A stretch of DNA of 64,000 bases. It comes from a virus (Duplodnaviria; Heunggongvirae; Uroviricota; Caudoviricetes). The first letter of the stretch is position 1; each line of letters begins with the position of its first letter. Below the pieces are notes generated by a model. That model had not been told where the DNA came from. It ran no database searches and worked only from the letters and a program-made list of their open reading frames with translations. Positions 7,201-14,524 of the stretch are shown piece by piece. The stretch lies in the IMG/VR virus record IMGVR_UViG_3300021475_000005; one strand, 5' to 3'. The translations under genes and the position numbers were made by a program.

Positions 7201-7523
7201 TTAGTTCCCCGAAGGTCTCTGGTTATGAGGGCTCCTGAAGAATCTGATTTACCCTCTTGAGACCTGCGTTGAGATTAGAGAGGGATTTGGTCAGTGCCAC
7301 CACGCTGGTAGCATTCAGTGCACCCGAAAGTAATGTCATGAAATCATCTGCCTCGATTTGCAGAGATGTTTGGATTTCCTCAAGAACTGTTTCGTTTGAA
7401 AGCGTTTCTTTTAGTGCAGCGTTTTGAACCACAACTAGCCCTTTCTCTTCTCTGCCCCGAGAAAGAACTTTTCATGTCCGACGACTGCGAGCAAGAGGCT
7501 TTGCCTCCGCGCACAAAATAAAT

Positions 7524-7868
7524 TTAACGATGTGGCTTATCCTGTTTGGTATCGAGAAGATCGCGAATCTGACGAAGGAGATCAGTCTCATTCTTCATCC
7601 AGTCGCGGAGATCGGATGTCTGCGCTTCGAGCGTGCTGACGCGGGGTGCCAACTTCGCATCTGTTAGTTCATCCACACGGGCACTCAGGACAGCGTAACG
7701 TGATTCGTTCTGACCGTATAGACCGGCGGTGCCGAGCAAGAACGAAATCACAATCGCCACATGTCCGAGATTCAAAGACCAATCAAAAGTTGGTCCTCTA
7801 TGTTTGTGATGGTGCGAAGACGTATCCGCAGCATCAATTTCGTCGTCGAAGTTGACCAATGTCTTCAC
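7524..7868 (-). CDS. single-TM coiled-coil membrane protein
   Basis: One hydrophobic segment followed by a heptad-like region. Confidence 0.55.
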   Translation of the reverse strand: MKTLVNFDDEIDAADTSSHHHKHRGPTFDWSLNLGHVAIVISFLLGTAGLYGQNESRYAVLSARVDELTDAKLAPRVSTLEAQTSDLRDWMKNETDLLRQIRDLLDTKQDKPHR

Positions 7869-8044
7869 TCGCGCGGGGATGAATCAATCTGGTCGGGTCC
7901 AGAGTTCGACACATACTTATGCCCCCGGCGCAAGTATTGTTTCGTTCGCGCAAGTTACTTTAGAGAGGGAATGAAGTCAAGAATTCCCCATTGATACAGT
8001 AAGTTGCATGGTTAATAGGAGGATTGGAACTGTGTGTCAAGGGC

Positions 8045-8083
8045 AAAATAAAAGCCCCATGGGGAGGAAACCCACGGGGCTTT
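8045..8083 (-). terminator. intrinsic terminator downstream of tRNA operon 1
   Basis: AAAGCCCCGUGG...CCAUGGGGCUUUUAUUUU. Confidence 0.8.
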
Positions 8084-8226
8084 CGTTAACAGCGTACAGA
8101 TGAGCCCAAGCACGGGCTGCTTCGATCAGGAGAAAAAGGCCGCGCTGGGATTGCGGCTCAACACGGCCTTCTCCCGTACTAGTCGAAGGACGATCAGGAT
8201 AAGCAATCTTTCTGTGGGGTGTCAAG

Positions 8227-8304
8227 TGGACTCGCTACCGAGGCTCGAACTCGGATCGTGAAGACTTCGGAGGTCAACGTTCTATCCATTTGAACTATAG
8301 CGAG
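8227..8304 (-). tRNA. tRNA-Arg(CCG)
   Basis: Cloverleaf; loop CUCCGAA; encoded CCA. Confidence 0.85.
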
Positions 8305-8308
8305 AAGG

Positions 8309-8383
8309 TGGCAGTCCCAGACGGATTCGAACCGCCGACCATTCGTTTAGAAGACGAAGGCTCTTCCGCTGAGCTATGGGACT
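8309..8383 (-). tRNA. tRNA-Arg(UCU)
   Basis: Canonical cloverleaf; loop CUUCUAA; CCA. Confidence 0.95.
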
Positions 8384-8395
8384 ATGCACATTAAG

Positions 8396-8484
8396 TGGCA
8401 CTGACGGCGAGATTCGAACTCGCAATGTGGTTTCCCACTCCAGATTCGTAGTCTGGTGCCTTGATCCAGTTAGACTACGTCAGT
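8396..8484 (-). tRNA. tRNA-Arg(ACG) with long variable arm
   Basis: Loop CUACGAA; extra arm GUGG-GAAA-CCAC; CCA. Confidence 0.9.
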
Positions 8485-8521
8485 GTATTATGTATACGGA
8501 TAATCCGTACACTGATTAAAA

Positions 8522-8598
8522 TGGCTCCTGTTGCAAGGCTCGAACTTGCCGCGATCTGATTAACAGTCAGATGTCCACACCCGGTGCACTTAACAGGA
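8522..8598 (-). tRNA. tRNA-Asn(GUU)
   Basis: Loop CUGUUAA; CCA. Confidence 0.9.
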
Positions 8599-8629
8599 AT
8601 AGTGAGATGACATATCTCACAGATTGATT

Positions 8630-8704
8630 TGGATCAAGGAGTAGGATTCGAACCCACGTTGCCGACGTTCAATGCGTCGTGTCCTACCGCTAGACGATCC
8701 TTGA
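8630..8704 (-). tRNA. tRNA-Gln(UUG), A33 variant
   Basis: Loop CAUUGAA; U1-A72; CCA. Confidence 0.85.
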
Positions 8705-8709
8705 AAATT

Positions 8710-8785
8710 TGGCTCACCCTCTTCGATTCGAACGAAGAGCCTCCAGATTCAGAGTCTGTTGCGCTACCAGTTGCGCCAAGGGTGA
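8710..8785 (-). tRNA. tRNA-Gln(CUG)
   Basis: Loop CUCUGAA; CCA. Confidence 0.92.
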
Positions 8786-8786
8786 A

Positions 8787-8861
8787 TGGTAGTTCCTCGG
8801 AGAATCGAACTCCGCTAAATCTCCGTGTAAAGGAGGCGACCAGCCACTGGCCCAAGGAACT
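8787..8861 (-). tRNA. tRNA-Val(UAC)
   Basis: Loop UUUACAC; CCA. Confidence 0.88.
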
Positions 8862-8895
8862 AAACTTTTTTACTCCTTTCGAGTAAACGTTGATT

Positions 8896-8970
8896 TGGTT
8901 GTCCCTGATGGAGTTGAACCATCTACCTAACGGTTATCAGCCGTTTGCTCTACCGATGAGCTAAGAGACA
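8896..8970 (-). tRNA. tRNA-Ile(GAU)
   Basis: Loop CUGAUAA; CCA. Confidence 0.93.
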
Positions 8971-8975
8971 TCATT

Positions 8976-9050
8976 TGGTTGGCCTACCGAGAATCGAACT
9001 CGGGCATAAACGCTCATCAGGCGCTTGCTGTACCACTTAGCTATAGGCCG
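8976..9050 (-). tRNA. tRNA-Ile(GAU), G37 variant
   Basis: Loop CUGAUGA; CCA. Confidence 0.85.
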
Positions 9051-9055
9051 AAATT

Positions 9056-9130
9056 TGGTATCTCTTACTGGAATCGAACCAGTTCATCACGGCATGTCAT
9101 ACCGGTGCTCTCCCACTGAGCTAAAGAGAT
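9056..9130 (-). tRNA. tRNA-Val(GAC)
   Basis: Loop AUGACAU; CCA. Confidence 0.88.
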
Positions 9131-9131
9131 A

Positions 9132-9206
9132 TGGTCGATCTGGATGGTCTCGCACCACCGACACGAAGATTTTCAGTCTCCTGCTCTACTCCTGAGCTAC
9201 AGATCG
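9132..9206 (-). tRNA. tRNA-Phe(GAA)
   Basis: Loop CUGAAAA; CCA. Confidence 0.9.
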
Positions 9207-9299
9207 ATATTCGTTACTTCTCATCTCCATAATTCGCCGTTTCTGGCGAGTTAACGTCTGTTTCGTTTGTAACTCGTCGTCTTTGACGAGTTCTGCTTT

Positions 9300-9385
9300 T
9301 GGTGGGAGTGGAAGGAATTGCACCTACTCACCCGTGGGGACTGATTTTACAGACCAGCGCCGCTCTCTAACTCGACCGCACTCCC
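9300..9385 (-). tRNA. tRNA-Tyr(GUA)
   Basis: Loop CUGUAAA; variable arm; CCA. Confidence 0.9.
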
Positions 9386-9398
9386 ATGGTCCAAATGC

Positions 9399-9434
9399 AA
9401 AAAGGCCCGCTCGGTGTTTACCGGGCGGGCCTTT
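9399..9434 (-). terminator. attenuator terminator (3:4 hairpin) in front of tRNA operon 1
   Basis: AAAGGCCCGCCCGGU-AAAC-ACCGAGCGGGCCUUUUU, ending 13 nt before tRNA-Tyr. Confidence 0.9.
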
Positions 9435-9457
9435 CGGAACCTTGAGAGCGACTGGGT

Positions 9458-9547
9458 TTACCAGATATCCTGCTCACGCGCCGAAGACCCGCCCGGAATA
9501 TACCGGACGAAGTTGACTTGCTGCACGCGGTTGAATCTCTTGCTCAT
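9458..9547 (-). CDS. leader peptide 1, MSKRFNRVQQVNFVRYIPGGSSAREQDIW (29 aa)
   Basis: ATG 6 nt after the -10 element (leaderless); codons 4-17 all read by downstream tRNAs; codons 18-23 form the antiterminator strand. Confidence 0.85.
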   Translation of the reverse strand: MSKRFNRVQQVNFVRYIPGGSSAREQDIW

Positions 9548-9553
9548 GATGTT

Positions 9554-9582
9554 TGTGTACCTGATTCGATTTTGAATGTCAA
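9554..9582 (-). promoter_or_regulatory. sigma70-type promoter of tRNA operon 1
   Basis: TTGACA-17 nt-TACACA; the same -35/-10 pair precedes the TROVE gene. Confidence 0.7.
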
Positions 9583-9848
9583 GGATACCCAATATGGGGT
9601 GGTGAGTCAGTTTGACTGACTTGACATTCCCAAAACTTGTCGGGAGGGCTAGGAAAGGCCAGAGGCTTTTCATCTGGGCTGTAGCAATCCCAGAACAGCG
9701 CTACTCCTGCGCTCCGGCCTATCATAGCCCTCCCGACCTCGGCTTGCGCCGGACGCGGATGCCACGCGATCTGGGGAGGCTAGGGGATTCGACAGGTGCG
9801 GTCAAGGATCGCGACTTTCGCGTATCTCAGGTACGGGAAAGTCGTAAA

Positions 9849-9938
9849 TGGCGGAGAGTTGGCGAACCCGAGTCCCATACCCGTAAAGGTACACAAGGTT
9901 TAGCAAACCTGTCCCATCACCTGATGAGTTAACTCTCC
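9849..9938 (-). tRNA. tRNA-Ser(GCU), 8/4 fold
   Basis: 8-bp acceptor GGAGAGUU/AACUCUCC; 6-bp D stem; loop UUGCUAA; variable arm; GCCA. Confidence 0.8.
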
Positions 9939-9943
9939 TAATC

Positions 9944-10033
9944 TGGCGGAGCGCACTGAAGTTGCGTCAGAGGCCTTTGCAGGCTCGCGATGCTTTCCAA
10001 GCAGGCCGGGCGCGCTCGTCCCGTTTACGCTCC
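9944..10033 (-). tRNA. tRNA-Ser(GGA), 8/4 fold
   Basis: 8-bp acceptor; 4-bp T stem CUGA/UCAG; loop UUGGAAA. Confidence 0.8.
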
Positions 10034-10103
10034 AATTTTGCGCGAGATGCCACGACGCATCCCTTTCAACCATTCCGGCACGTTGGCCTGCGCTGGTCTT
10101 GAC

Positions 10104-10193
10104 TGGAGGAAGGCGGGTGCTGCTGCCGCCCAAGCCGGTTAGGGCTCCATCCGTTTTCAAAACGGAGTCTAACACTGGTTAGATTCACCTTCC
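10104..10193 (-). tRNA. tRNA-Ser(UGA), 8/4 fold
   Basis: 8-bp acceptor; D stem UCUAAC/GUUAGA; loop UUUGAAA. Confidence 0.8.
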
Positions 10194-10198
10194 GTAAT

Positions 10199-10289
10199 TG
10201 GCAGAGAGCGACGGGGATGCTCCGCAAACTTCTCTCGAAGTTCGATCCGCTTTCGAAACGGTCGCCGTACCTCGACGGCTTCACTCTCT
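10199..10289 (-). tRNA. tRNA-Ser(CGA), 8/4 fold
   Basis: 8-bp acceptor; T stem GCGG/CCGU; loop UUCGAAA. Confidence 0.8.
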
Positions 10290-10296
10290 GTAAAAA

Positions 10297-10372
10297 TGGT
10301 GGACCTTGCCGGACTTGAACCGACCACCCGCTGCTTGCAAAGCAGCCGCTCTCCCAGATGAGCTAAAGGCCC
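10297..10372 (-). tRNA. tRNA-Ala(UGC)
   Basis: G3:U70; loop UUUGCAA; CCA. Confidence 0.93.
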
Positions 10373-10378
10373 GTAGCT

Positions 10379-10450
10379 TGGTGGAGTAAATGGGAGTCGC
10401 GCCCATCGCAATCGGTTTGCAAGACCAATCTCCGCCCTCGCGGTTACCCC
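10379..10450 (-). tRNA. tRNA-Ala(UGC), compact D arm
   Basis: G3:U70; loop CUUGCAA; CCA. Confidence 0.8.
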
Positions 10451-10454
10451 GAAC

Positions 10455-10530
10455 TGGAACTGCGTGTCCGATTTGCACGGACCTCCTCCGCCTTCACAGG
10501 GCGGCGACTCGCTTGCTAGTCCTACGCAGC
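10455..10530 (-). tRNA. tRNA-His(GUG)
   Basis: Loop CUGUGAA; CCA. Confidence 0.85.
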
Positions 10531-10538
10531 ATTTAATT

Positions 10539-10622
10539 TGGTCGCTCTACCAGAACTTGCATCTGGAATCCCGAAGGACAACGTTCTCAACGTTGCGCGT
10601 CTACTAGTTTCGCCATAGAGCG
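10539..10622 (-). tRNA. tRNA-Leu(GAG)
   Basis: Loop UUGAGAA; variable arm; ACCA. Confidence 0.9.
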
Positions 10623-10631
10623 TTATTTTAG

Positions 10632-10714
10632 TGGTGCCTCAACCCAGACTCGAACTGGGACGCTTTCGCACTGGGATTTGAAGCCAGCGTGTCTACCATT
10701 TCCACCATGGAGGC
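10632..10714 (-). tRNA. tRNA-Leu(CAA)
   Basis: Loop UUCAAAU; variable arm; ACCA. Confidence 0.9.
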
Positions 10715-10726
10715 ATATTCGTTATT

Positions 10727-10809
10727 TGGTGCCCAACGTCGGGGTCGAACCGACACCTCAATGAGAACGGGATTTAAAGCCGTCGCGTCTGCCATTCCGC
10801 CAGATGGGC
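10727..10809 (-). tRNA. tRNA-Leu(UAA)
   Basis: Loop UUUAAAU; variable arm; ACCA. Confidence 0.9.
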
Positions 10810-10850
10810 ATTATAAACTTGTGATCGAGTAGTACGATTCACTTGTAAGT

Positions 10851-10934
10851 TGGTAGCCCTAGAGGGACTTGCACCCCCACGTCTTTCGACATTGGTTCCT
10901 AAGACCAACGCGGCTTCTATTACGCCATAGGGCC
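10851..10934 (-). tRNA. tRNA-Leu(UAG)
   Basis: Loop CUUAGGA; variable arm; ACCA. Confidence 0.9.
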
Positions 10935-10939
10935 AAACT

Positions 10940-11027
10940 TGGAGGACTCGGAGAGAATTGCACTCTCGGTGGCAGTTACGCTAGTGGATTAAGAATCCAC
11001 GCCCATCGCTTCTCGGGTCACGAGTCC
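10940..11027 (-). tRNA. tRNA-Lys(CUU) with long variable region
   Basis: Loop UUCUUAA; ~16-nt variable region; UCCA. Confidence 0.85.
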
Positions 11028-11045
11028 AAATTATTCAGTATACTG

Positions 11046-11130
11046 AGGATCGGGTGAGATTTGCACTCACGATGGCATTTCTGCGTGGGTTTAAAAGACC
11101 CGTGACTTCGACTACTCTGTCCACCGATCC
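11046..11130 (-). tRNA. tRNA-Lys(UUU) with long variable arm, CCA not encoded
   Basis: Loop CUUUUAA; arm GCA-GAAA-UGC. Confidence 0.8.
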
Positions 11131-11145
11131 ATCTCAGTATAAAAT

Positions 11146-11221
11146 TGGTTCCGCTTATCTGACTTGCACAGATCATCTCTCGTTTACGAGACGAGCGCAT
11201 CGCTACCAATGCTTAAGCGGA
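11146..11221 (-). tRNA. tRNA-Thr(CGU)
   Basis: Loop CUCGUAA; CCA. Confidence 0.88.
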
Positions 11222-11226
11222 TCAAC

Positions 11227-11301
11227 TGGTGCCTCTTGAACGACCTGCCCGTTCCTCTCACCCCTACCAAAGGTGCTCATCGCTTTCTATGATTAAAAGG
11301 C
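11227..11301 (-). tRNA. tRNA-Thr(GGU), divergent T loop
   Basis: Loop UUGGUAG; T arm GAACG-GGCAGGU-CGUUC; CCA. Confidence 0.75.
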
Positions 11302-11302
11302 G

Positions 11303-11378
11303 TGGTGCCGATAGACAGGATCGAACTGCCTCCCTGACTGATTACAAAACAGTTGCGCTCCACTAGCGCCATATCGGC
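11303..11378 (-). tRNA. tRNA-Thr(UGU)
   Basis: Loop UUUGUAA; CCA. Confidence 0.9.
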
Positions 11379-11467
11379 AAAAAACAATTGCATGATTCGG
11401 GTAGTCTCGCCTTCTTCGCGTCCCGATAGTTTCAGCCATCACCGGCTTACGGAGATCATGCACAAAA

Positions 11468-11555
11468 TGGTCAGAGTGGTGTGATTCGAACACACGATGC
11501 CTTTCGGCTCCTGCTCCCAAAGCAGGCGGAATGAGCCAGCCTATCCGACACTCTG
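11468..11555 (-). tRNA. tRNA-Pro(UGG) with long variable arm
   Basis: Loop UUUGGGA; arm GCC-GAAA-GGC; C1-G72; ACCA. Confidence 0.88.
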
Positions 11556-11602
11556 ATAATTCTAATATCATCATAGCGAATCTCCGCTTACGATGATTGA
11601 AT

Positions 11603-11678
11603 TGGTCTGCCTATCAGGATTTGAACCTGAATCACCAGCTTCCGAGGCCGGGGCTCTACCAAGTTAAGCTATAGACAG
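11603..11678 (-). tRNA. tRNA-Pro(CGG)
   Basis: Loop CUCGGAA; C1-G72; ACCA. Confidence 0.9.
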
Positions 11679-11767
11679 TCGTTCTTCGTCTCCTGTTGGA
11701 GCCGGACCTGTTTCTGGAGCGGGGATCAGAAGGTTTGGTCGCGACTCGTGTTAGCCGCGAGAGGGAC

Positions 11768-11881
11768 TTAGTCCCGTAAGCGGCTTGAGAGTGGTGCGGT
11801 CGCTGGCGTTGTCAGCACGAGCGAATGCAAACTGGCGGAGGCCAGTTTGGGGCTCGACTTGAGTGACAACGTTGCGAACAT
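11768..11881 (-). CDS. leader peptide 2, MFATLSLKSSPKLASASLHSLVLTTPATAPLSSRLRD (37 aa)
   Basis: AAAGG RBS; 30 of residues 3-33 are P/T/K/L/H/A/S, the amino acids of the downstream 18 tRNAs. Confidence 0.85.
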   Translation of the reverse strand: MFATLSLKSSPKLASASLHSLVLTTPATAPLSSRLRD

Positions 11882-11921
11882 TTTCAAACCTTTAAGTGGC
11901 GCGAGTCGCGCCGGAAGTCTT

Positions 11922-11950
11922 TGTGTCTCATATCCAGACTCGTATGTCAA
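11922..11950 (-). promoter_or_regulatory. promoter of tRNA operon 2
   Basis: TTGACA-17 nt-GACACA with GAGTC in the spacer. Confidence 0.65.
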
Positions 11951-12099
11951 CAAAGAAATTTCAAAATCCACTTTCCGGTTTCGCCGGGTTGCCGCGATTA
12001 ACAAAAGGACGCCCGCTTTTGCAGGCGTCGTGTCGCTTTCTTTATGGCAATGCATCCGAATTCCCGGATGAGCGGCTCATATGAGTAAAGGAGATCAAA

Positions 12100-12396
12100 A
12101 TGGACGATGATTGGGACAATGAAGAATGGGAACGCTGGATCGCGCTCACCGATGCGGAACAGGAGCAGGAACTCCGCGTGGCTGAGGCGGAATATATGGA
12201 ATGGTATAGATCGTTGACGCCAAAGCAGCGCTACCATTATGAAGTCCGAGGACTTCTTCGACTCATCGTCAAGGAACGAAAAGGCTTAAAGCTCTTTCCC
12301 GAAATGCGAGATTTGATGGTTCGAAGAGCCCAGAAATTACTTTGGGCGCATCGGCATCATCGTCAAACCGGCATCTATCCTTCGTTCGACGACTAG
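12100..12396 (+). CDS. hypothetical protein
   Basis: AAGGAG RBS; 98 aa. Confidence 0.7.
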   Translation: MDDDWDNEEWERWIALTDAEQEQELRVAEAEYMEWYRSLTPKQRYHYEVRGLLRLIVKERKGLKLFPEMRDLMVRRAQKLLWAHRHHRQTGIYPSFDD

Positions 12397-12713
12397 CGGC
12401 AAAATACAGCATCAGTCGTCACGCCGACCTCGCCATCAATTTCTTCCAGCGCCGTGTCCGGAATTTCCGGCATGGGAACTGTGCCTCGAAGTGCGTGATA
12501 ACTGTCAGCATGAAAAAACAACTGCCCATCCGTTATATTGTAATGGCAGTATCCACGTTTCAAGTGCTGACCGAATGACGGACTGTACGTTGGTTTATCA
12601 TCAGTGCCTGATCGTGCCCAGCGCCCTGTCGGGATAACATGCAGTTCTTCACAAGCTGGACACCAGTGATATAAATTGCCGCCAAACTCGGCGGTCCAAG
12701 GAGCAAGTTTCAT
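12393..12713 (-). CDS. small Cys/His metal-binding protein
   Basis: CPAC..H and PTYSPSF...CHY motifs common in phage/bacterial DUF proteins. Confidence 0.7.
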   Translation of the reverse strand: MKLAPWTAEFGGNLYHWCPACEELHVIPTGRWARSGTDDKPTYSPSFGQHLKRGYCHYNITDGQLFFHADSYHALRGTVPMPEIPDTALEEIDGEVGVTTDAVFCR

Positions 12714-12730
12714 TTTATTCCCACACAATG

Positions 12731-12756
12731 AAAAGGCCCGGATCGCTCCGGGCCTT
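12731..12756 (-). terminator. intrinsic terminator after the small basic protein cluster
   Basis: AAGGCCCGGA-GCGA-UCCGGGCCUUUU. Confidence 0.7.
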
Positions 12757-13045
12757 GTTCGGCTACTCGCCGCCAGCCTGCTTTCACAGACACAAAGATC
12801 GCCAGATTTTCATCTGTCGCAGGACGATCTTATTTACGCAGGTGCCAGTTTAGCCATCGCCTTACCAGCACGTTTCAATAATCCAGTCATTTGAGCGTTC
12901 GTATCTGGATTACGAGAAATTGTTCCATCCATGTGTCCCTGATGTAACTTCATCGCGGCTTGAAGGGCTGCTGTTCCAGCTTGATGTTCTTGCTGGAGAT
13001 CAGGCCCGATAGAAGCCTGAAGATCAGAGATACCTTGGTCCAATT

Positions 13046-13168
13046 TTATTTGCCCTTCTTCTTGGGCATCGGCATTGCCTTCTTTCCGCCAGCCGGTTTC
13101 TTGCCTGCACCTTTCTTCTTACCAAAGGGAGGTGCTGCACCGGGGAATGCAGGTTTCTTCGAGGCCAT
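13046..13168 (-). CDS. 40-aa Lys/Pro/Gly-rich basic peptide (not in ORF track)
   Basis: MASKKPAFPGAAPPFGKKKGAGKKPAGGKKAMPMPKKKGK; AAAGGA RBS; tiles between the 12834..13043 and 13199..13420 ORFs. Confidence 0.65.
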   Translation of the reverse strand: MASKKPAFPGAAPPFGKKKGAGKKPAGGKKAMPMPKKKGK

Positions 13169-13420
13169 TCGGGATTTCCTTTTGTTGGTTGAGGGTAGTT
13201 ACATGCCCGGCGTGTCTGCGTCCGGGTCCATGTCGGGATCGCACATCGCCTGATTGGGATGTGCATTATTATTCGGGTCCATCAATTCTCCGGTAGGCCA
13301 TGCGCCACGAGGCGCAGAAGTTGGCGGACCAGCCTGATTGTTGGTGATGACGCCAACAAGCGCCTTCGAATTCGGGTGCTTCGTCGAAGCAGCCTTATTC
13401 TTTCGCATATTGTACTTCAT

Positions 13421-13633
13421 TTATTTTGGAGCCTTTCCATCGCGCTTCTTGTGGAAGCCTTCCAGAGTTTCGGCGAGACGCGCTTCTTTGCCGATCTTAC
13501 CCGGTTCCGCAGCCGCCTTTTTGAGTTCGTCCTGCGGAATTTTCTGGCCTTGTGGAATTCCCAATGCACGATGCAGCGCGCCTTTGTCGCCGCCAATCGC
13601 TTTCTGGATAAAATGTTTTGCTTTCTTTGCCAT
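13421..13633 (-). CDS. small basic phage protein
   Basis: GAGG RBS; KGALHRALGIPQGQKIP...ARLAETL. Confidence 0.75.
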   Translation of the reverse strand: MAKKAKHFIQKAIGGDKGALHRALGIPQGQKIPQDELKKAAAEPGKIGKEARLAETLEGFHKKRDGKAPK

Positions 13634-13769
13634 GACGGCGCTACCTCAATAGGGACCTGAGAAGCGCGGATTGTCTCGCTTATGACACAACGAGTCAAGA
13701 ATTCCGACTCATTGCCGGAGTCAAGTTACAGAGATGAAATCTAATATATGAAATTTATAATATATGAGA

Positions 13770-13845
13770 TGGCGCACCTAACGAGATTCGAACTCGCAGC
13801 GACTTGATCGACAATCAAGCTTCATTCCCAGATGAACCTAGATGC
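13770..13845 (-). tRNA. tRNA-Asp(GUC), G37 variant
   Basis: Loop UUGUCGA; GCCA. Confidence 0.85.
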
Positions 13846-13866
13846 ATTATCTCACATATAATAAAT

Positions 13867-13943
13867 TGGTCATGCCAACGAGATTCGAACTCGTGCCACA
13901 AGGATTGAAAGTCCCGTATCCTAGACCGCTAGACCATGGCATG
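13867..13943 (-). tRNA. tRNA-Glu(UUC)
   Basis: Loop CUUUCAA; CCA. Confidence 0.92.
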
Positions 13944-13945
13944 AT

Positions 13946-14025
13946 TGGTCGGGTCAACGGGGAACGATCCCGCATAGCAAGCTTGAGAGGCAAGCTGTCC
14001 TAGTCCTGATTTAGACGATGACCCG
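13946..14025 (-). tRNA. tRNA-Glu(CUC), irregular anticodon stem
   Basis: Loop CUCUCAA; mismatches in the anticodon stem; CCA. Confidence 0.72.
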
Positions 14026-14067
14026 TAGAGAGGAGTTTCGGACGGGTCGAAGATTTACGTCGCGCGC

Positions 14068-14175
14068 TTAAGCGGCGACGCGCATATCTCGGCCCGTCGA
14101 ACGTTCAAGTTCGCGGGCAACGGTGCCGGAGAGGCACACGTGCATGAGTGCGCGGATGTGATTCGAGATAACCAT
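14068..14175 (-). CDS. candidate leader peptide 3 (35 aa) before the Glu/Glu/Asp tRNA operon
   Basis: ATG 5 nt after TTGACA-17-GATGAA; stop codon at the apex of a long hairpin. Confidence 0.45.
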   Translation of the reverse strand: MVISNHIRALMHVCLSGTVARELERSTGRDMRVAA

Positions 14176-14347
14176 GCGCTTTCATCTCATTTTCAGACGG
14201 CCTTGTCAAGAATGCCTCGATAATATAGACGCCATATAGGAAAGCGGCTGAAATCCGGCACTACCGGTCATAAAAAGCGACAGATGCCATATTGACAGCC
14301 CCATTCCACTCCATTACACCGCATCCCATAAAGAAGGGTCTCACTAC

Positions 14348-14524
14348 ATGGCGAAAAAACCGCCGAAGAAGAAAGAGTCCAGACTAGCTATGGCGTTGAT
14401 GCAGAAGGATCGGGCGCTGATCGATAAAGCCGCTGCCCTTCTCGGCCTTCCACCCTCTGTCTGGGGACGTGCAATCATTCTCAAAGAGGCGGCAAAAGTC
14501 GTCGAAGCGGCAGGCGCAAAATGA
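14348..14524 (+). CDS. small ribbon-helix-helix-like regulator (58 aa, not in ORF track)
   Basis: ESRLAMALMQKDRALIDKAAALLGLPPSVWGRAIILKEA pattern; stop overlaps the next ATG. Confidence 0.6.
   Translation: MAKKPPKKKESRLAMALMQKDRALIDKAAALLGLPPSVWGRAIILKEAAKVVEAAGAK

Follow-up and report, generated by a model that had tools for sequence, protein, structure and literature searches.

What tells a giant soil phage when to transcribe its tRNA genes? The question is raised by a 12-gene tRNA operon in IMG/VR virus record IMGVR_UViG_3300021475_000005, upstream of which lie a promoter, a short open reading frame (ORF) and a set of mutually exclusive RNA helices (together, leader A). We analysed a stretch of 64,000 nucleotides (nt) of this record (the window), which is the reverse strand of bases 69672-133671 of the 156,272-bp sequence (GC content 50.5%; completeness 59% by CheckV estimate); its minus strand carries all features described below. 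An initial annotation of the window had proposed an attenuator of the trp/his/pheM type, codon-matched to the tRNA operon. This core reading passes the comparative tests reported here, and we consider it likely that leader A is a leader-peptide (ribosome-mediated) transcription attenuator gating the 12-tRNA operon of a phiCbK-like giant phage.

The operon (operon A, 8227-9385) was delimited with ARAGORN and consists, in order, of genes for Tyr-GUA, Phe-GAA, Val-GAC, Ile-GAU (two copies), Val-UAC, Gln-CUG, Gln-UUG, Asn-GUU, Arg-ACG, Arg-UCU and Arg-CCG, each scoring 41-66 bits with the Rfam tRNA model. ARAGORN finds 27 tRNA genes in the window, all on this strand. A consensus promoter scan shows no promoter-like site inside operon A on this strand, and the fold of 8127-8176, a GC hairpin followed by UUUUU, marks the probable terminator at the end of the operon.

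Promoter A (9554-9582) has a −35 element TTGACA (9582-9577), a 17-nt spacer and a −10-like element TACACA (9559-9554). The pattern TTGACA-N17-[T/G]ACACA is found four times on this strand against 0.09 occurrences expected; of the other three copies, one stands before the second tRNA leader, one before a Ro60/TROVE-like gene and one before a portal-like gene. Six nucleotides separate TACACA, which ends at 9554, from the ATG at 9547, whose A falls at the predicted +1. This ATG opens leader ORF A (9458-9547), which has 29 codons (MSKRFNRVQQVNFVRYIPGGSSAREQDIW) followed by TAA. The frame stays open upstream to an ATG at 9673, but we do not take this 71-codon version to be the true gene: it runs across the promoter and is not preserved in the relatives. 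The consensus promoter/terminator scan flagged neither promoter A nor the attenuator terminator, because TACACA breaks the −10 rule of the scan and the terminator stem has an internal mismatch.

The regulatory codons, 4-17 of the ORF (9497-9538; R F N R V Q Q V N F V R Y I), are AGA TTC AAC CGC GTG CAG CAA GTC AAC TTC GTC CGG TAT ATT. All 14 are read by tRNAs of operon A (set-A codons), and all 11 distinct anticodons of the operon are sampled, Arg being represented by three isoacceptors and Gln and Val by two each. The length of the run proved a poor statistic and was discarded, as a second run of 14 set-A codons exists by chance in a non-leader frame of the record; therefore anticodon cover was scored instead. 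The 156-kb record was scanned in six frames, ∼312,000 stretches of 14 codons in all; full cover of the 11 operon anticodons is reached by codons 4-17 and nowhere else, and the runners-up (10 of 11) mostly overlap them. Given the peptide, a synonymous choice that covers all Arg, Gln and Val isoacceptor classes has P = 0.022; for 14 set-A codons drawn according to phage codon usage, full isoacceptor cover has P = 0.0008. The initial annotation had described 12 tRNAs with these anticodons (placed by ARAGORN and Rfam at 9385-8227), a TTGACA-17-TACACA promoter at 9582-9554 with an ATG 6 nt later at 9547, a 29-codon minus-strand ORF (present at 9547-9458) and 14 consecutive codons, quoted exactly, that sample 11 anticodons; all of this is borne out by the sequence.

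The leader RNA contains segments with alternative partners. Segment 1 (UUCGUCCGG, 9503-9511), which coincides with codons 13-15, pairs in the minimum free energy fold with the 5′ part of segment 2 (CCGGGCGGGUCUUCGG, 9481-9496); segment 2 can pair instead with segment 3 (CCGAAAGGCCCGCCCGG, 9421-9437), which is common to the antiterminator (2:3) and the terminator (3:4). The intrinsic terminator (9399-9434) comprises a hairpin at 9434-9401 and a U-tract at 9403-9399 and ends 14 nt before tRNA-Tyr, while the ORF extends ∼7 codons past segment 2. Computed energies are −15.4 kcal/mol for 1:2, −29.9 kcal/mol for the duplex of segments 2 and 3, and −26.4 kcal/mol for 3:4. The fold predicted for the free leader RNA has 1:2 and a strong 3:4 hairpin with UUUUU behind it (z-score −3.9); free RNA is in this state with P = 0.89-0.98 (0.89 for the window leader without a ribosome). 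The fold and the energies thus suggest that termination is the default and that 2:3 competes only when segment 1 is occupied.

To place the phage we used a neighbouring PhoH-like protein, which is ∼50% identical to homologues in phiCbK-like giant siphophages (Dolichocephalovirinae) of Caulobacter and Brevundimonas. A tblastn search of a phage collection with this protein located the relatives, and nine cultured phages (Bajun, Karma, CcrSC, Kikimora, Colossus, CcrBL9, Bambus, CcrPW and C2) made up the comparison set; the window leader and these nine were aligned as 10 sequences. A blastn search of the leader regions against 50,697 phage records gave no match, because the leaders are too short and too diverged in DNA. 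The search of IMG/VR for related loci with the PhoH-like protein confirmed no relative. Scanning IMG/VR for the pattern of segments 1 and 2 with their loop returned 46 loci, three of which have a leader ORF and tRNAs; these three are phiCbK-type records, and one of them (221,828 bp) has the leader peptide of Karma. The other 43 loci were set aside as chance GC-rich hairpins.

The cassette of promoter, ATG, ORF, hairpin and terminator stands before the same Tyr...Arg tRNA block in all nine relatives, and the order of the tRNA blocks and the partition of amino acids among them are also the same as in the window. Each relative has a TTGAC promoter with the same −35, a 17-18-nt spacer and the same −10 geometry, an ATG 7 nt after the −10 element, an ORF of 31-32 codons, a 1:2 hairpin and a GC-rich terminator with a U-tract. 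In the GenBank records of Karma and Colossus the homologous site is already annotated as a ‘predicted rho-independent terminator’. The ATG is invariant across the 10 phages, 6-7 nt past the −10 hexamer; its position at the predicted +1 in 10 of 10 indicates that the mRNA of leader A is probably leaderless. Leaderless mRNAs are common in Caulobacter, and such a start would couple the first ribosome tightly to the polymerase.

All three helices are maintained in the 10-phage alignment by compensatory changes on both sides. For helix 1:2, 92.5% of cells are paired, with GC to AU exchanges at two pairs; for helix 2:3 the value is 84.7%, with GC to AU and GC/GU/UA changes and with ten core pairs almost always paired; for helix 3:4 it is 98%, one terminator pair appearing as CG, UA or AU. 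Slid controls for all helices gave 24-59%. The variable positions change together across all four segments, as an attenuator demands. The mutually exclusive 1:2, 2:3 and 3:4 helices of the initial annotation, including a terminator at 9434-9399 just before tRNA-Tyr, therefore hold in coordinates, folds and covariation, the terminator being a −26.4 kcal/mol hairpin with UUUUU 14 nt upstream of the gene.

Among the 10 phages, 13 of the 14 regulatory columns vary and still 139 of 140 residues lie within Y, F, V, I, Q, N and R, the exception being a Ser in CcrBL9; residues after the start of segment 2 are not restricted to this set. The window leader and that of Bajun are identical at only 4 of 14 regulatory residues and have the same composition. 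Columns that vary while the residues stay within the set, in this reading frame, point to selection on which tRNA is needed rather than on the peptide. A comparison of leader codons with tRNA content in related phages, the comparative check named in the initial annotation, thus comes out in favour of the attenuator.

On the reading we favour, transcription would begin at, or within one base of, the A of ATG 9547, and a ribosome would load the leaderless RNA as it emerges and read 14 codons for which the phage has no cognate tRNAs other than those of the operon itself. If decoding is fast, the ribosome would reach or pass segment 2, or 1:2 would re-form behind it; 3:4 would then pair and the polymerase would halt at the U-tract 9403-9399, leaving an attenuated RNA of ∼149 nt. 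Slow decoding of any regulatory codon would make the ribosome lag on or before segment 1, in which case segment 2 would pair with segment 3 (∼15 bp, −30 kcal/mol), the terminator would be blocked and the genes from tRNA-Tyr through tRNA-Arg-CCG would be transcribed. Since the operon products would relieve the stall, the result would be negative-feedback control of tRNA supply. Candidate triggers are host tRNA decay, anticodon nucleases and high phage demand.

The stall was modelled as the equilibrium fold of the RNA up to the terminator stem with the ribosome footprint masked. With the A site at codons 10-12 of the window leader, the antiterminator forms with P ∼1.0. With the footprint at codons 4-9 it reaches only P ∼0.5, and from codon 15 on segment 2 is covered and the terminator forms. 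Codons 15-17 are the sole CGG, UAU and AUU codons of the leader, that is, the only ones for Arg-CCG, Tyr and Ile. The initial annotation had described the leader as an isoacceptor-level OR gate, responding to the loss of any of these tRNAs. In these folds the description is borne out for codons 10-12 and, at about half strength, for codons 4-9. In its strict form it is doubtful for Arg-CCG, Tyr and Ile, since a ribosome stalled at codons 15-17 would cover segment 2; sensing there would need help from kinetic trapping or a footprint of smaller size. Relatives, moreover, skip some anticodons altogether. In the model, an integrator of decoding delay over codons 4 to ∼14 fits better than a strict OR gate. 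The footprint model reproduces the switch in three of the eight relatives modelled (Bajun, CcrSC and C2). In the other five (Karma, Kikimora, Colossus, CcrPW and, for the most part, Bambus) the terminator is so stable that it prevails at equilibrium with segment 1 masked; equilibrium masking was accordingly dropped as support for these five, in which the switch would have to be kinetic.

Two further leaders match other tRNA blocks. Leader B (11950-11679) has a TTGACA-17-GACACA promoter, a Shine-Dalgarno-like AAAGG, an ATG at ∼11881 and a 37-codon ORF (MFATLSLKSSPKLASASLHSLVLTTPATAPLSSRLRD), in which 30 of the 31 residues at positions 3-33 are A, T, L, S, K, P or H. It covers 16 of the 17 anticodons of the second (Pro...Ser) block, the genome-wide maximum, with only CCG uncovered, and its RNA is highly structured (z = −4.98). 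A U-tract terminator before tRNA-Pro was not found in the window phage; Karma has an annotated terminator at the site homologous to that of leader B, and homologous B leaders are present in relatives. In the Bertelyviruses CcrSC and CcrBL9, tRNA-Trp has moved to the end of the Pro...Ser block, and only these two have a B leader with a Trp codon inside the regulatory run (MTRIHTTLPTAKPASTGALTLASWPASSKPLLRHSAVLA; L005, 223-342; L008, 153-272); the B leaders of phages with tRNA-Trp elsewhere have none there. The comparative check thus extends to leader B, where the codon accompanies the relocated gene.

The Ser codons of leader B led us to predict Ser tRNAs, which were then found as four tRNA-Ser-like cloverleafs at 10289-9849 (90-91 nt, CCA-ended; anticodons CGA, UGA, GGA and GCU). 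All four form 7 of 7 acceptor pairs and have a variable arm that is long and D and T arms that are atypical; none is called by default ARAGORN or by Rfam (E ≤ 1). Four more low-scoring tRNA-like genes fill gaps in the array and appear only under relaxed ARAGORN settings: Ala-UGC (10379-10450), Lys-CUU (10940-11027), Thr-GGU (11227-11301) and Glu-CUC (13946-14025), the last scoring 27.6 bits in Rfam, just below the gathering threshold.

Leader C (14209-14068) precedes the Glu/Asp block and consists of TTGACA-17-GATGAA, 5 nt, and an ATG at 14175 that opens a 35-codon ORF (14175-14068); it is probably leaderless. Its core ARELERSTGRD keeps Glu and Asp codons and aligns with RE.E..GRD of the Karma, Bajun and Kikimora leaders, and each of these three leaders comes with a promoter and a terminator of its own. 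No leader was found before the Trp-Cys block (23545-23389), which lies directly 3′ of a protein-coding gene.

We lean slightly towards a wider proposal, in which the three attenuators (A at 9547, B at ∼11881 and C at 14175) act as a self-referential tRNA homeostat that splits the repertoire by amino acid, each leader gauging the decoding speed of the codons of its own operon and having that operon transcribed on demand. Such a device would compensate automatically for host tRNA decay or anticodon-nuclease cleavage. That the design is common to the culturable phiCbK-like phages of Caulobacter and Brevundimonas is part of the same proposal, and we put it at the same modest level of confidence.

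RNA data came from one soil metatranscriptome run, in which the region is represented as assembled contigs that show no ends, strand or levels. One contig (9219-9517) spans the terminator into tRNA-Tyr; read-through RNA is thus compatible with the data, which is weak evidence. Another (10712-11902) extends from leader B into several tRNAs, its end lying ∼13 nt from the predicted start of promoter B. RNA cover is lacking at 11992-12300, where the DNA run continues, though uncovered stretches are not evidence; some cover exists upstream of promoter A.

Several points weigh against the attenuator. We infer the start of transcription, the translation of the leader, the termination, the kinetic logic and the physiological trigger from sequence. 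Leader ORF A has no Shine-Dalgarno sequence; a leaderless mRNA would explain this, and translation would then rely on leaderless initiation at a predicted start site. The nine relatives are of common ancestry, so that the conservation counts are not independent, and one run of 14 set-A codons occurs by chance elsewhere in the record. Some anticodons are left out by the leaders of relatives (Arg-UCU by those of Bajun and Karma), and for some Arg codons no cognate phage tRNA was detected. The same side of the balance takes the half-strength response at codons 4-9, the termination predicted from codon 15 on, the five relatives in which the terminator wins at equilibrium, and the RNA contigs, which are silent on ends and strand and may include DNA carry-over.

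How do other explanations fare with the same evidence? A stalled ribosome cannot distinguish a missing from an uncharged tRNA, as is established for trp and his attenuation, and the same hardware might respond to amino-acid starvation or to a general slowing of elongation (through uncharged tRNA, ribosome shortage or host shut-off) and not to how abundant particular tRNA species are, the codon match being then a consequence of the grouping of the tRNA genes by amino acid. The match is tighter by amino acid (139 of 140) than by isoacceptor, as the missing Arg-UCU codons of Bajun and Karma illustrate. However, extra tRNA is no help under amino-acid starvation, and the output would not answer the signal; moreover, all Arg, Gln and Val isoacceptors are sampled in the window leader, which is improbable given the peptide (P = 0.022), and the Trp codon follows the tRNA-Trp gene in the Bertelyviruses. 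We regard this choice of signal as unlikely, while allowing it more weight than the explanations that follow.

A more radical alternative leaves the ORF untranslated and the codon match a coincidence: the element would act as RNA only or bind a protein, or would terminate the upstream Pro-to-Ser operon, with re-initiation at promoter A. The missing Shine-Dalgarno sequence, the lack of a terminator between the last Ser tRNA-like gene and promoter A, and the metatranscriptome cover upstream of the promoter are what one would expect in that case. It fails to account for a codon cover that is unique genome-wide, for set-restricted codon evolution visible in this reading frame only, for an ATG invariant at the predicted +1 in 10 phages and for second and third leaders that match different tRNA sets; nor does any Rfam cis-regulatory family, the T-box included, match here. 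We hold it to be quite improbable. Even less credit can be given to a conserved micropeptide with a function of its own, followed by an ordinary gene-end terminator. The relatives do share a recognisable peptide, TYRQ(N/F)V(Q/R)(N/Q)I(R/Q)VVR, yet the window peptide keeps its composition and not its order (the 4 of 14 residues shared with Bajun), the C-terminal halves are set by the RNA sequence of segment 2 and are otherwise variable, and a gene-end terminator would need no conserved, covarying antiterminator. Leader-peptide attenuation thus remains the explanation that we prefer.

The search for an intrinsic terminator between the last Ser tRNA-like gene and promoter A found none, and the attenuator terminator may therefore also halt transcripts coming from block B; on such transcripts the AUG of the leader would be internal and would go untranslated. 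The spacer itself (9848-9583, ∼265 nt) is structured, has no U-tract terminator and contains three mutually complementary C/G-rich segments (TAGCCTCCCC, GGGAGGGCTA and TAGCCCTCCC). Within operon A, the 93-nt gap between the Tyr and Phe tRNA genes (9299-9207) is filled by two similar perfect hairpins of 22-24 nt (AACTCGTC...GACGAGTT, and a second with a TAACTCGCC... 5′ arm). These score as terminator-like on the plus strand and may be processing signals or antisense terminators. The promoter class TTGACA-17-TACACA is also present at 38244-37800, before an ORF with ATG 38166 whose N-terminus, judged by eye, resembles a Ro60/TROVE protein.

Leader-peptide attenuation is familiar from textbooks as a control of amino-acid biosynthesis and of a few synthetase genes; in those cases charged tRNA serves as a proxy for amino-acid supply. 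As in thrL, ilvL, ivbL, trpL, hisL, leuL and pheL, leader A has a short promoter-proximal ORF with regulatory codons in or before segment 1; as in the enterobacterial leaders generally, its 1:2, 2:3 and 3:4 helices are exclusive, the terminator precedes the regulated genes and the free RNA is predicted to terminate. A single leader that responds to several amino acids is also familiar: thrL (Thr and Ile), ilvL of ilvGMEDA (Leu, Val and Ile) and ivbL of ilvBN (Val and Leu). In contrast to the enterobacterial leaders, leader A would regulate tRNAs and not biosynthetic enzymes, so that the product itself decodes the sensor. It also carries codons for seven amino acids and 11 isoacceptors, one to three times each and with no runs, in an mRNA that is probably leaderless and an ORF that continues ∼7 codons past segment 2; and it is phage-borne, one of three leaders among which the tRNA repertoire is divided.

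The pheM leader of pheST in E. coli is similar in controlling a gene of the translation apparatus by the supply of charged tRNA; it differs in that it responds to a single amino acid, has a protein product (a synthetase) as its target and is chromosomal. T-box riboswitches likewise respond to the state of tRNAs by forming either a terminator or an antiterminator ahead of translation-related genes. Their ligand, however, is uncharged tRNA, which they bind directly by means of a specifier codon and the T-box motif and with no translation involved, whereas leader A matches its tRNAs through an ORF. In the Rfam scan of 7500-14500 (E ≤ 1), the hits other than tRNAs were four below threshold to unrelated families (ar14, Plastid-ycf2, YrlA and ctRNA_pGA1), none of them at 9399-9582.

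The cargo of operon A is that of the large tRNA arrays of big phages, for which a role in offsetting codon-usage mismatch, host tRNA decay or anticodon-nuclease defence has been proposed. To our knowledge, published accounts of such arrays deal with tRNA function rather than with transcription that responds to demand. tRNAs and terminators are listed in the phiCbK genome paper, from which the words ‘attenuat’ and ‘leader’ are absent. A search of the full text of open-licence PMC and bioRxiv papers found no published attenuator or leader-peptide control of phage tRNA genes, in agreement with the initial annotation, which knew of no described attenuator for a phage tRNA array. The class of mechanism is classical; new are the tRNA target, the proposed self-referential feedback, the sampling of isoacceptors, the probably leaderless start and the setting in a phage.

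Although the phage of the window is uncultured, cultured Caulobacter phages such as Karma, Colossus and CcrSC carry the cassette too, and the idea is therefore testable in a model host. The sequence-only rule that leader codons match operon anticodons offers a way to find such sensors and to detect non-canonical tRNA genes. If the attenuator works as proposed, it would be a virus-encoded direct feedback controller of decoding capacity, in which the regulated product is tRNA. It would then explain when giant phages express their tRNA arrays, why phage tRNA genes are sorted into operons by amino acid, and how these phages may resist host tRNA depletion without constant over-expression.

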